64,000 bases of DNA from Callorhinchus milii (taxonomy: Eukaryota): contig NW_024704743.1 of the NCBI RefSeq assembly GCF_018977255.1, positions 7,752,001 through 7,816,000 on the forward strand, given 5' to 3'. The position numbers were made by a program, and so were the translations under genes. The notes beneath the pieces were generated by a model that saw only the letters and a list, made by a program, of their open reading frames with translations, was not told where the DNA came from and did no database searches. The stretch's first letter is position 1; every line of letters begins with the position of its first letter. This document shows positions 20,573 to 56,869 of this stretch, one piece after another.

Positions 20573-20898
20573 AATAATAATAATAATAATCCTTGCATTT
20601 GATATAGCGCTTTTCACGTCGGGAGGACATCCCAAAGCGCTTCACAGAACACACTGTGAAGTGAATTGACTGTATATTTGTGGGCGAACGCGGCAGCCAA
20701 TTGCTCACAACAATGTCCCACAAACAGTCGTAGATTGAAATTAACCAATTTATTATTGTTTTTGGTTTTGGAGGGATTATTATTAGGCTCTGTGTGGAGT
20801 AAGGAAACTTGCCCAAGGTTTCGCCCTCTGCCTGGAATTGAACTCAGGTCTCTCGCTTGCAAAGCGAGTGTTCTAACCACTGAGCTACAGGACTCCAC
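20573..20898 (-). mobile_element. Full-length tRNA(Ala-like)-derived SINE with L2-type tail and (ATT)n end
   Basis: minus strand gtcctgtagctcagtggttag...gagttcaattcc (A/B boxes), body ctgtttgtgggac...aattggctgccgcgtt, tail gcgctatatcaaatgcaaggattattatt. Confidence 0.88.
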
Positions 20899-23898: not shown

Positions 23899-23936
23899 AG
23901 GTATGATGAAGGGTTGTGGACCCGAAACCTTGACCT
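23899..23936 (+). mobile_element. Degenerate hammerhead/Penelope-like remnant
   Basis: aggt-aTGATGA-a-GGGTT-gtg-GACCC-GAAA-cctt-gacct. Confidence 0.4.
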
Positions 23937-39050: not shown

Positions 39051-39243
39051 TATGTGCCACACCATCAATGGGGTACAAGGGGATGGGGGGGAGGGTGGTG
39101 GGGAAGCTATCCTTGTGTAGAGTAGGTTTCAAGCAACATGTCCCATTTCTGTTGTATTTTGAGCTTTGGTTTGCATAACAGATTTGAAAATGCAAAACCA
39201 AGTTGCAGTGTCTCTCCTTGGGAAAAATAGTGCTTGGCTTTGA

Positions 39244-39374
39244 GAAAGTGAATCAACATTTCGGGTCCACGGGTTCTGACCGAAGGGTCGTGGACCCGAA
39301 ATGTTGACTCACTTTCCTTTCTGCACAGATGCTGCCTGACTGGCTGAGTGTTCGCAGCGACTTCTGTTTTTGTT
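39244..39374 (+). mobile_element. Penelope-like terminal fragment with 28-bp inverted 5' duplication and degenerate hammerhead
   Basis: 39244-39271 is the reverse complement of 39289-39316 (1 mismatch); core reads CTGACCGA...GAAATGTT. Confidence 0.58.
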
Positions 39375-39541: not shown

Positions 39542-39678
39542 GGCGAAGACATATTCAGACCAGACTAGTGGAACCGAGAGCATCATCTCTGAACAGCGGA
39601 GATTGCTTCTTACTTCTAGCTCCTCAGAACTGTTTCCTGTGGACAGGGGAATTTGCTAATGTCATAGAGAAATCCAAG
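39542..39678 (+). CDS. SVIL: SVIL exon (137 nt, phase 1-0) [26 protein letters not shown]...ANVIEKSK (gelsolin-like repeat)
   Basis: tcttttag acceptor, aag|gtcagt donor, gelsolin LNSGDCF signature. Confidence 0.95.
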
Positions 39679-39702
39679 GTCAGTCTACTACCATCCATAC
39701 TT

Positions 39703-39874
39703 CCCTCTCGACTCTCTACCCCCTCCTCGCTCCCTCCCTTCCCTCCCCTCACCCTGACCATTTCCCCCCTGCTCGGGTCCTGACCCAACTGTACAGCGCC
39801 TTGGGACGTCCTCCCGACGTGATGTACGTGATGTAAGGCGCTCTATAAATGGAATCTTGTTGTTGTTGTTGTTG
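39703..39874 (+). mobile_element. Young L2 LINE 3' tail with (TTG)n end
   Basis: cagcgccttgggacgtcctcccgacgtga...ggcgctctataaatgg...ttgttgttg. Confidence 0.8.
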
Positions 39875-40825
39875 TAAGAGGCTGCACAGAGAAACTGAAC
39901 CTCCTTCATCGCAAAAGTGACACAAATTAAGAGTATGGTGATTTGTGCCAATGTCTGATGTGTAAACCATATGTTCCTTTATTGCATTTGTGGGTTAATT
40001 TCATTCACTTCCCTGGATATTTTTGCTTTCCTTTTTTTTTCCTGGTGACGGGAATGGTTGAAAAGATAACCACTTCAGCCAATGTTCTTAATGGATGTAA
40101 AGCCTTCCTCAGGATACAGGAGTTTTGGGTTGTCAGTGACCAAGTTCAGTCGCATTGCAAAAGTTGGGGAAATGCTGCTGCTGTTGGTGCCACACTTTGC
40201 TAGAGTAGTATAACTAACCTTTCTGTACAAGATAAGAGTCACTACACGTTAAATAAATCCTGTGAAGTGATTGAGACATCCTCTGGAAGTGAAAGGCATT
40301 ATAACAAAAGCAAAGATTATAAAATTATTGTAAAATAGTTATTTGCATTTCATACATCACTTAAATACAGTTTAACCTGTTGTCAACAGCCTCTCAAGGG
40401 ACTGGGCCAAAGTGGCTTTTATATAAGGGTGGTCTCCGAGTAAGGTGTGTGAACGCACACTGAAGGGGCTGTTCAAGCAACCACCTCTATTCAGCAACCA
40501 TCTTCTGCAGTTGTTAACAGGGAGTGGTTGCTGAATGGAGGTGGTTGCTTGAACAGTTTGACAGTATATCAAAAGCTTTTGAAGTGTATGTAAGGAACTG
40601 TTGTGTAGACAATAGCAAGGGAGAGAGAGAACTAACCTGCTCCAGGAGCATGCCACAAACAGCAATCTTTTTTAAAAGTGAATTTGGGTGAAGGAGTAAT
40701 ATATAAGGATTGTATCTATTATTAATCAGTAGAACACCCTACTCCTCTTTGAGGTTTTTAACATCTGCCTGAACGGGGATTTGGGATTTTCAACCCTTAA
40801 AAGCCTCTTCCTCCCAACATGCCCC

Positions 40826-40862
40826 AGTTCTGACGAAGGGTCGTGGACCCGAAACGTTGACT
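40826..40862 (+). ncRNA. Minimal type I hammerhead ribozyme motif in a Penelope-like terminus
   Basis: agtt-CTGACGA-a-GGGTC-gtg-GACCC-GAAA-CGTT-gact: both core boxes, 5-bp stem II, palindromic AACGTT stem III, 4-bp stem I. Confidence 0.6.
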
Positions 40863-40926
40863 CACTTTCTTTCTCCGTAGATGCTGCCTGACCTGCTGAG
40901 TGTTCCCAGCGACTTCTGTTTTTGTT
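40826..40926 (+). mobile_element. Penelope-like element terminal fragment
   Basis: close match to 39272-39374 (gacccgaaa...gatgctgcctga...ctgagtgtt..cagcgacttctgtttttgtt); carries the hammerhead motif. Confidence 0.6.
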
Positions 40927-41164
40927 AGGGATTTAAATATCACTCAGGGGAGTGCACCTCCCATAATGTTGCATTCATTCACACTGCATTGGGTGTCAGC
41001 TTACATCATGAACTCAAGTCCTGGTCTGGGAGATGAATCTATAAATTTCTTATCCTGAGGCATGAGTGCTACCACTTTCACTGGGATTCATAACTGATAA
41101 AGATACTGCAAAAAATCTTTTAATGGATGTGCGTGTGCTAATGAGTGTGATTTCTTTTACTCAG

Positions 41165-41312
41165 GCTGCTGAACTGGCTGCTTTTATTCAAACTAAACGG
41201 GACCTTGGCTGTAGAGCACCCTATGTGACCACAATAGAAGAAGGAATTAACACCCAGAGCAAAACTGCCAAAGAATTCTGGAGGCTCCTGGGTGGGCAGT
41301 CCAGCTATCAAG
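41165..41312 (+). CDS. SVIL: SVIL exon (148 nt, phase 0-1) [18 protein letters not shown]...[13 protein letters not shown]
   Basis: tactcag acceptor, aag|gtaata donor. Confidence 0.93.
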
Positions 41313-41314
41313 GT

Positions 41315-41440
41315 AATAATAATAATAATCCTTCCATTTGGTATTGCCCTTATCACATCTTGTAGATGTCTCAAAGCGCTTCACAGAATATACTATGAAG
41401 GGAATTGATTGTATATTTGTGGGCGAAACGTGGCAACTGC
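41315..41440 (-). mobile_element. SINE 3' tail inserted at the exon 41312 donor
   Basis: (AAT)n starts at intron position +3, followed by ccttccatttggtat...tctcaaagcgcttcacagaatatact. Confidence 0.8.
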
Positions 41441-51042: not shown

Positions 51043-51341
51043 TAATAATAATAAATAATAATAATCCTTGCATTTGATATTGTCTCAAAGCGCTTCACAG
51101 AATATACTATAAAGTGAATTGACTATATTTGTGGGCAAAACGCAGCAGCCAATTGCGCACAGCAGTGTCCCACAAACAGTCATGGATTGAAAATGACCAA
51201 TTTATTATTGTTGTTTTGGAGGGATTATTATTAGGCGTGTGGAGTAAGGAAACTTGTCCAAGGTTTTGCCCTGCCTGGAATTGAACTCAGTTGTCTCGCT
51301 TGCAAGGCAAGTGCTCTAACCACTGAGCTACAGGACTCCAC
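51043..51341 (-). mobile_element. tRNA-derived SINE (same family)
   Basis: head and tail match 20573-20898; aggta on both flanks. Confidence 0.85.
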
Positions 51342-53567: not shown

Positions 53568-53734
53568 AGGCACAGGTTTAAGATGATGAAAGGAAGGTTT
53601 CAGACAGACACCGGGAGCTATTTCTTTACACTAAGGGTAACTGACAACTGGAATGGGGTTACCATGGAAGATGGTAGAGGCCAGAACATTGGATATGTTT
53701 AATAAACCACGTGATCCTATAATGGGAATTCATT
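53568..53734 (+). mobile_element. CR1 LINE ORF2 C-terminal fragment
   Basis: translates RHRFKMMKGRFQTDTGSYFFTLRVTDNWNG/LPWKMVEA (one frameshift), typical CR1 ORF2 end. Confidence 0.7.
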
Positions 53735-54502
53735 AGGTATGAGAAGGCACTGGGTAGGGTAGGTATGAGAAGGCACTGGGTAGGGTAGGTATGAGAAGGC
53801 ACTGGGTAGGGTAGGTATGAGAAGGCACTGGGTAGGGTAGGTATGAGAAGGCACTGGGTAGGGTAGGTATGAGAAGGCACTGGGTAGGGTAGGTATGAGA
53901 AGGCACTGGGTATGGTAGCTATGAGAGGGCACTGGGTAGGGTAGGTATGAGAGGGCACTGGGTAGGGTAGCTATGAGAAGGCACTGGGTAGGGTAGGTAT
54001 GAGAAGGCACTGGGTAGGGTAGGTATGAGAGGGCACTGGGTAGGGTAGGTATGAGAAGGCACTGGGTAGGGTAGGTATGAGAGGGCACTGGGTAGGGTAG
54101 GTATGAGAGGGCACTGGGTAGGGTAGCTATGAGAAGGCACTGGGTAGGGTAGGTATGAGAAGGCACTGGGTAGGGTAGGTATGAGAGGGCACTGGGTAGG
54201 GTAGGTATGAGAGGGCACTGGGTAGGGTAGGTATGAGAGGGCACCGGGTAGGGTAGGTATGAGAAGGCACTGGGTAGGGTAGGTATGAGAAGGCACTGAG
54301 TAGGGTAGGTATGAGAAGGCACTGGGTAGGGTAGGTATGAGAGGGCACTGGGTAGGGTAGGTATGAGAAGGCACTGGGTAGGGTAGGTATGAGAAGGCAC
54401 TGGGTAGGGTAGGTATGAGAAGGCACTGAGTAGGGTAGGTATGAGAGGGCACTGGGTAGGGTAGGTATGAGAGGGCACTGGGTAGGGTAGGTATGAGAAG
54501 GC
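53735..54502. repeat. Minisatellite, 26-bp unit AGGTATGAGA(A/G)GGCACTGGGTAGGGT, about 29.5 copies
   Basis: directly visible tandem array with a few variant units. Confidence 0.97.
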
Positions 54503-56103: not shown

Positions 56104-56869
56104 TGGAGTCCTGTAGCTCAGCAATTAGAGCACTCATCTCGCAAGCGAGAGACCTGGGTTTGATTCCCGGGTAAGGGCGAAACGTTGGGCAGGTTTCCTT
56201 ACTCCACACGCCTCTGTTTACCTAGCAGTCAGTAGGAACCCGATTGTTAGTCGATTGGTAGGATCGCTTTTCCTGGGGTAATCGTTCCTTCAAAATGAAG
56301 GTCACTTCATGACTTTGTGGGACACTGTTCTCTGGGGAGGACAAGTTTGCAGTGCTATGGGGAGAGCGCGAGGGAGTGGGATTGATTTGGAAGCTCTTTT
56401 CAAAGAGCCGGCACAGACACGATGAGCCGAATGGCCTCCTTCTGTGCTGTATAATTCTATGACTGCTGTGTGCAATTGGCTACTGCAATTCGCCCACAAA
56501 ATATACAGTCAATTCACTTGAATGCAATCTGATAGCAGGTAACAAAAGGCAGAGACAGCAGAACGAAGGAGTGGCAAAATGTGAAGCATGCAGGTGAAAC
56601 ATGTTTGTGCAGCTGGAAGCAAAACTAGGCTCAAAGCTGGAAAAGAACTCAAGTGCAGCAAAACAGATCATTTATCATGAAGCTACTTGTTGAGATTAGG
56701 GACAACATCATCATTCAACTTTACGAAGGGGAACTTTACTCTCTTCATAAAATCTAGTCATTCAGGCCCATTAAATACAGTCAATTCACTTTACAGTATT
56801 CTTTGAAGTGCTTTGAGATGTCTCGAAGATGTGATAAGGTGCTATATCAAATGCAAGGATTATTATTAT
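56104..56869 (+). mobile_element. Composite SINE: tRNA head, nested CR1 tail (56328-56461), captured 250-bp segment (56524-56774), SINE tail
   Basis: parts identified by comparison with other copies in the window. Confidence 0.8.

Follow-up and report, generated by a model that had tools for sequence, protein, structure and literature searches.

A minimal hammerhead motif in an SVIL intron of Callorhinchus milii, very probably a passenger remnant of a Neptune-type Penelope-like element

The window analyzed here, a 64,000-nt stretch of Callorhinchus milii DNA, carries a minimal type I hammerhead motif in an intron of the supervillin gene SVIL. With high confidence, we attribute this motif to a Neptune-type Penelope-like element (PLE): it would be the minimal hammerhead of a truncated terminal-repeat copy, now likely an inactive passenger of the intron. 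Judged by its bases, the motif is a real and intact minimal hammerhead-ribozyme sequence. Its inactivity in SVIL RNA is what we infer.

The kind of motif is already described and the window copy is ordinary in its context. The analysis extends the known class of PLE minimal hammerheads to a Neptune-type family of a chimaera, and the window copy is a clean, intact case for asking whether solo minimal hammerheads ever cut. Two small additions concern the decay of the catalytic CpGs, which resembles that of other CpGs, and the starts of truncated copies, which fall at stem I more often than at the cut site.

Sequence and architecture of the motif

The 37 bases from 40826 to 40862, as described on the forward strand by an earlier sequence-only reading, were confirmed base for base, and the minimal type I, dimer-type architecture proposed there is supported. 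Stem I has 4 bp, one of them G-U. Stem II has 5 bp and a 3-nt loop, and the pair at its base, G10.1-C11.1, is G40838-C40850. The GUU triplet occupies 40856-40858, so that the cut is predicted between 40858 and 40859. Helix III is absent; in its place a palindrome provides positions 15.1, 15.2, 16.2 and 16.1.

Two details of the earlier description had to be changed. It took AACGUU as the substitute for stem III. The helix-III half is the shorter ACGU (A15.1 to U16.1), whereas AACGUU would join A14 to U17, a nucleotide that in the established numbering must remain unpaired in the active hammerhead core. It also regarded the extra A as a departure from the canonical core. This base is standard for PLE minimal hammerheads and was invariant in all 41 scorable copies of the family; indeed, a nucleotide between 9 and 10.1 is described as a conserved trait of the class (PMC4209133).

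A hammerhead search had been proposed as a check of the motif, and its outcome was divided. A descriptor was built from the two boxes, stems I and II of 4 bp each, a UH site and pairing 15.2-16.2. The window gave a single match, and 300 resamples of 64 kb drawn from a first-order Markov model gave none. With the Rfam models there was no hammerhead match, whether the whole window was scanned at the gathering score or 40300-41400 at E<=10. This absence, together with a folding z-score of only -1.0 for the 37-mer, would favor a chance likeness. Against chance stand the empty resampled windows, the position of the motif in PLE terminal repeats, compensatory changes between subfamilies, and unrelated families in the assembly that have the same core with other stems. 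A chance origin is already largely refuted, and the probability we leave to it is negligible.

Table 1. Position of the hammerhead motif, its parts, the carrier repeat, related copies and the surrounding SVIL features in the window.
Feature	Position	Strand	Basis or remark
Minimal type I hammerhead motif	40826..40862	+	bases read; descriptor match; identical to family majority
Stem I, 5' strand	40826-40829	+	
CUGACGA (C3-A9)	40830-40836	+	
Extra A	40837	+	
Stem II	40838-40842/40846-40850	+	
GAA (G12-A14)	40851-40853	+	
ACGU palindrome	40854-40857	+	
U17	40858	+	
Stem I, 3' strand	40859-40862	+	
5'-truncated pseudo-LTR piece, Neptune-type PLE, 132 bp	40795..40926	+	repeat and 3'-end comparison
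Possible target-site duplication (same 7-mer)	40783-40789 and 40928-40934		weak; 5 nt off 5' boundary
Second, separate sense copy, preceding intron	39273..39374	+	one-base insertion in CUGANGA box; C15.2 to U
Inverted partial duplicate directly 5' of second copy	39243..39271	-	sequence and fold
Third copy, decayed 31-nt fragment	23904..23934	+	C3 missing, G16.2 changed
SVIL exon upstream of host intron, gelsolin repeat	39542..39678	+	contig joins and sequence match
SVIL host intron, 1,486 nt, GT..AG	39679..41164	+	joined in 3/3 RNA-like runs, not in DNA-like run
SVIL exon downstream of host intron	41165..41312	+	contig join, supervillin a identity

The carrier repeat and its parent element

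The repeat around the motif has 2,885 candidate matches in the genome, and among 40 that were scored, the other 39 stand at 93-97%. Upstream homology, compared in 30 loci, breaks off at varied points in the manner of 5'-truncated retrocopies; in L019 and L025 it extends for about 550 nt. Within this upstream part, L019 encodes a disrupted GIY-YIG stretch with CxxC in front of it, and it was this locus that gave the link to the element; a Pfam GIY-YIG search of the genome had returned two weak loci, both without the motif. When 30 loci were chosen by their GIY-YIG stretch, 28 had the motif or the tail downstream on the same strand (the motif itself in 22). Longer copies have RT motifs, a DKG motif and an N-terminal region farther upstream of GIY-YIG. 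The window copy has no ORF; in its relatives, broken frames can be read as the RT followed by the C-terminal GIY-YIG of an EN+ PLE.

The copy L194 is complete, with internal deletions. It reads motif (864), ORF start, RT, EN and a second motif (3101), and L093 has the same order of repeat, ORF, RT, EN and repeat with a partial 5' repeat. In the parent element, the ATG thus lies about 168 nt after the motif start, and in L194 the distance is 168 nt. With the motif in both terminal repeats of a complete copy, and with RT and GIY-YIG remnants in relatives, the Penelope-like origin suggested by the sequence-only reading is supported. Pfam support is weak because the element frames are broken: RVT_1 was found below the cut-off (E=0.003) in one of six fragments of longer copies, and GIY-YIG in none of the fragments supplied to the search. 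Every long copy examined has stops or frameshifts, and an intact ORF was not seen among them.

A C-X4-C-X2-C arrangement is located just ahead of the GIY-YIG stretch in L039, L059 and L040. A Zn-finger-like CX2-5CxxC linker between RT and EN is typical of Neptune and shared with Nematis (PMC8557442). Together with the wide vertebrate reports of Neptune, this fits a Neptune-type element, an assignment that comes from a linker also present in Nematis rather than from an RT tree.

The 3' ends of 113 copies, picked without the motif, fell into two groups, at +100 to +109 (42 copies) and +135 to +144 (49 copies). The window copy stops at the shorter end, about +100 from the motif start. Such two-peaked 3' ends are the signature of the PLE tail (PMC11167929, PMC8557442). 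Direct repeats, a 30-40 bp tail and adjacent inverted truncated copies, seen at 39243-39271 and at many other loci, are further PLE traits. The starts of 63 truncated copies were compared: 13 fall between -6 and +3 of stem I, and 3 near the cut site. Cleavage therefore seems not to determine where most copies end.

In the parent element, two copies of the motif would pair through their ACGU halves, form helix III and be cut after GUU. Cleavage was probably aided by the element's own protein, as may be deduced from PMC4209133 and PMC11167929. The stub in SVIL presumably arose by reverse transcription from the internal 3' start of the element, followed by early 5' truncation.

The 5' region of full elements (L194:864-1035, L100, L108, L118, L121, L125) has three acceptor-like stretches, each a pyrimidine run with AG, after the hammerhead, and the last ends 2 nt before the ATG of the ORF. 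This arrangement suggests a 5' UTR intron that might span the ribozyme or end beside it, as in Drosophila Penelope. The first stretch is also present in the window copy (40863-40880, sense to SVIL); loose contig ends at 40881, which would point to exon use, were not found among the matches listed. On C104, a 222-residue lysine-rich frame (L093:1102-1770, +), which we take to resemble histone H1, adjoins the near-complete element.

Subfamilies and decay of the family

The genome contains 1,591 copies with the exact core, in two subfamilies. At the base of stem II, the 10.1-11.1 pair is G-C in 863, A-U in 403, G-U in 284 and A-C in 41 copies. Subfamily B (A-U) was compared in 30 loci, most of which have U-A in place of the U-G pair of stem I. 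The covariation at these two places is one inherited subfamily change per pair and not many events. As far as such comparisons reach, the hammerhead fold appears to have been selected between subfamilies and essentially not after insertion. The exact 29-nt core with stem II is found in 369 copies, 185 on the forward and 184 on the reverse strand.

Decay was followed in copies located through the tail only, 102 in number, of which the 46 with a matching 5' flank were kept. The catalytic G8 and G12, both in CpGs, were changed in 26 of 86 cells, compared with 93 of 350 for other CpGs (p=0.50). The core was retained in 20 of the 46 copies, and core, stem II and palindrome together in 11. In stem II, 35 changes affected one side of a pair, and 2 were paired double changes. 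Non-CpG core positions were changed less often (11/397) than flanks (192/3,816; Fisher p=0.048), and after base matching, 11 changes were observed for 18.8 expected (p=0.04 by Poisson, 0.065 by column resampling). The deficit runs counter to what selection for destruction of the core would give, and could hint at some constraint or stem from subfamily variants in the flanks.

Compared with the family majority, the window copy has 2 substitutions and 1 deleted base in 131 nt, where mean divergence is 6.9%. It is thus nearer the majority than most copies, as might be expected if it had been domesticated as a selected intronic ribozyme, and retroelement-derived intronic hammerheads, such as that of the RECK intron, have been described in amniotes (PMC6155905). 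The amniote ribozymes are canonical, have tertiary contacts and are deeply conserved. The window copy, in contrast, has acquired none of the changes that would stabilize a monomer and is without a real helix III, and 11 of the 46 sampled copies are equally intact with no special role. Its non-ribozyme flanks are as well preserved as its core; therefore, a younger or lucky copy fits better than a selected ribozyme, and we consider domestication extremely unlikely.

Seven matches on small contigs (L187-L193, on C152, C268, C382, C462, C741, C814 and C1685) share the hammerhead core and have unrelated, longer stems II of 6-8 bp, and belong to other minimal-hammerhead families. Two of these contigs hold a pair of hammerhead families; in one case a GIY-YIG remnant of a different type lies alongside. 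The contigs may be foreign DNA, as some neighboring genes look unlike those of the host.

Host intron and neighboring copies

The exon that follows the host intron matches Callorhinchus milii supervillin a with 100% identity. This protein gives 22 exon matches, all on the forward strand; they start 16.7 kb ahead of the window and run to its end. They bear out the earlier proposal that SVIL is the host and that the motif is sense to it, inside a transcribed intron. In contigs of three RNA-like runs, which come from two studies, 38671 is connected to 39542 and 39678 to 41165, and in the DNA-like run these joints are absent; the label "RNA-like" is a guess, as none of the runs is recorded as RNA. 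All 15 runs consist of contigs, in which RNA ends are not visible, and no site where many ends gather was reported. The stub is accordingly transcribed within SVIL pre-mRNA and removed with the intron, the splicing being that seen in contigs. The 3' splice site is 306 nt downstream of the predicted cut.

Other repeats were noted in the same region. The host intron also contains a near-perfect hairpin of about 45 bp (40464-40560, -70.5 kcal/mol, z -11), which is probably a small inverted-repeat transposon; its matches to miRNA models fell far short of the cut-offs. A 26-bp tandem array (29.6 copies, 96% matches) lies at 53734-54502 in an SVIL intron. Finally, tRNA-like matches at 20828-20890 (-), 51266-51337 (-) and 56114-56170 (+), with similar sequence in L015 and L100, are most likely the heads of a tRNA-derived SINE.

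The nearest sense copy of the family, at 39273-39374, lies about 1.5 kb upstream of the motif. With its inverted duplicate it is predicted to form a hairpin of -51 kcal/mol that covers the 3' strand of stem II, the GAAA and the cut site. A second intact core was not found among family matches in 264 kb (the window and 200 kb upstream). A half-active heterodimer was also considered, with the window copy as enzyme and the 39273 copy as substrate. The two pair on paper; the heterodimer is unlikely because the cut site of the neighbor lies inside the hairpin.

Folding and prospects of cleavage

Left without a partner, the stub would fold as a rod in which the core GACG is paired with CGUU. In the predicted monomer, G5-A6-C7-G8 pairs with C15.2-U17 with a probability of 0.88-0.99. 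The active swapped dimer was computed at -14.5 kcal/mol, compared with -23.0 for two monomers and -28.3 for the best, inactive dimer, all by nearest-neighbor energies that ignore the tertiary core of the hammerhead. In the fold of the whole intron, stem II is well formed (0.83) and stem I reaches 0.2-0.3.

Single minimal hammerheads showed no cleavage in PMC4209133, where dimers and trimers cut at a low level. In PMC11167929, the PLE hammerhead of Anolis required the element's protein in order to cut, was dispensable for insertion, and had no read ends at its site. The role of PLE hammerheads is called unclear in PMC8557442.

The sequence-only reading had proposed that the motif could cut SVIL pre-mRNA or lariat. 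In the form we weighed, the motif would pair in trans, its partner being either a different intact copy or the same motif on a second transcript, perhaps with the element's protein as chaperone; cutting would be at a low rate and would trim SVIL output or affect intron turnover. Core, stem II and palindrome are all intact, the genome has over 1,500 copies with the exact core, and RNA-like contigs are rich in family sequence; weak cutting by dimers in vitro (PMC4209133) and rescue of the Anolis motif by protein (PMC11167929) also count for it. However, no cis partner with an intact core is present within the 264 kb, the neighboring copy is both broken and sequestered, and inactive folds are favored by 7-14 kcal/mol. 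A helper protein is doubtful because of the stops or frameshifts in all long copies examined. GUU is a permitted hammerhead triplet, slower than GUC. The host intron is spliced in all three RNA-like runs, and after insertion the catalytic positions of the family are subject to decay. The proposal is thus not supported, and on the basis of these predictions cleavage of SVIL RNA by the motif is unlikely. Core-mutant alleles showed no excess in RNA-like compared with DNA-like contigs (5-10% vs 8% for G8A and 9-13% vs 14% for G12A), although the summed, strand-blind contig depth behind these figures is too crude for them to carry weight.

A bolder version would treat the more than 1,500 intact Penelope hammerheads as a distributed pool of half-ribozymes, whose intronic copies cut host pre-mRNAs and lariats, that of SVIL included, in trans via ACGU. 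We hold this to be very improbable. Cutting of SVIL RNA by the motif, if real, would turn transposon debris into a genome-wide source of intron cleavage for cartilaginous fishes. An inactive passenger derived from a Neptune-type PLE remains our preferred reading.

Comparison with known systems

Hammerhead retrozymes are reported in one chondrichthyan genome (bioRxiv 10.64898/2026.07.22.740005). In the passages of PMC4209133 consulted and in two of its supplementary files, no shark or Callorhinchus example of a minimal hammerhead was found. A shark PLE hammerhead was likewise not found by name in the literature searched, mostly outside subscription papers; the supplements of the retrozyme preprint may name the species and families.

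The motif resembles vertebrate non-LTR retrozymes in its type I hammerhead, in its short non-coding repeat related to PLE pseudo-LTRs and in its predicted dependence on a dimer (PMC7229834, bioRxiv 10.64898/2026.07.22.740005). Retrozymes form head-to-tail arrays (PMC7229834), whereas the window copy is solo. It was not retained as a retrozyme, as TRF detected no array of consecutive tandem hammerhead units here.

With the intronic hammerheads of amniotes, in RECK and other genes, the motif shares its type I form, its sense orientation and its place in a vertebrate gene intron. Those are canonical, single-copy and ultraconserved in the description of PMC6155905, whereas over 1,500 repeat copies of the motif exist. 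A domesticated ribozyme of the RECK type was rejected: a canonical helix III and loop 1-loop 2 contacts are absent, and loop II has 3 nt.

A further comparison is with PAc, the Poseidon PLE of Anolis carolinensis (PMC11167929). In both, the hammerhead lies near the junction of pseudo-LTR and ORF, two 3' ends differ by about 35-40 nt (the tail), and copy ends are not clustered at the predicted cut. The PAc ORF starts inside stem II, whereas here the ATG follows farther downstream. Also unlike PAc, the present family has the Zn-finger linker of Neptune and Nematis.

The closest likeness is to the minimal hammerheads in the pseudo-LTRs of metazoan PLEs (PMC4209133). These have a type I core without helix III, a palindromic 15.2-16.2, the extra nucleotide between 9 and 10.1, G10.1-C11.1, a 4-bp stem I, a place in both terminal repeats and mostly solo truncated copies, all of which recur here. 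Differences from the examples given there are the 5-bp stem II, shorter than the 7-8 bp of the Schistosoma families, and the A10.1-U11.1 pair of the second subfamily. By its sequence, the motif has every feature of the PLE minimal hammerhead that was assessed, self-cleavage as a dimer being a predicted one.
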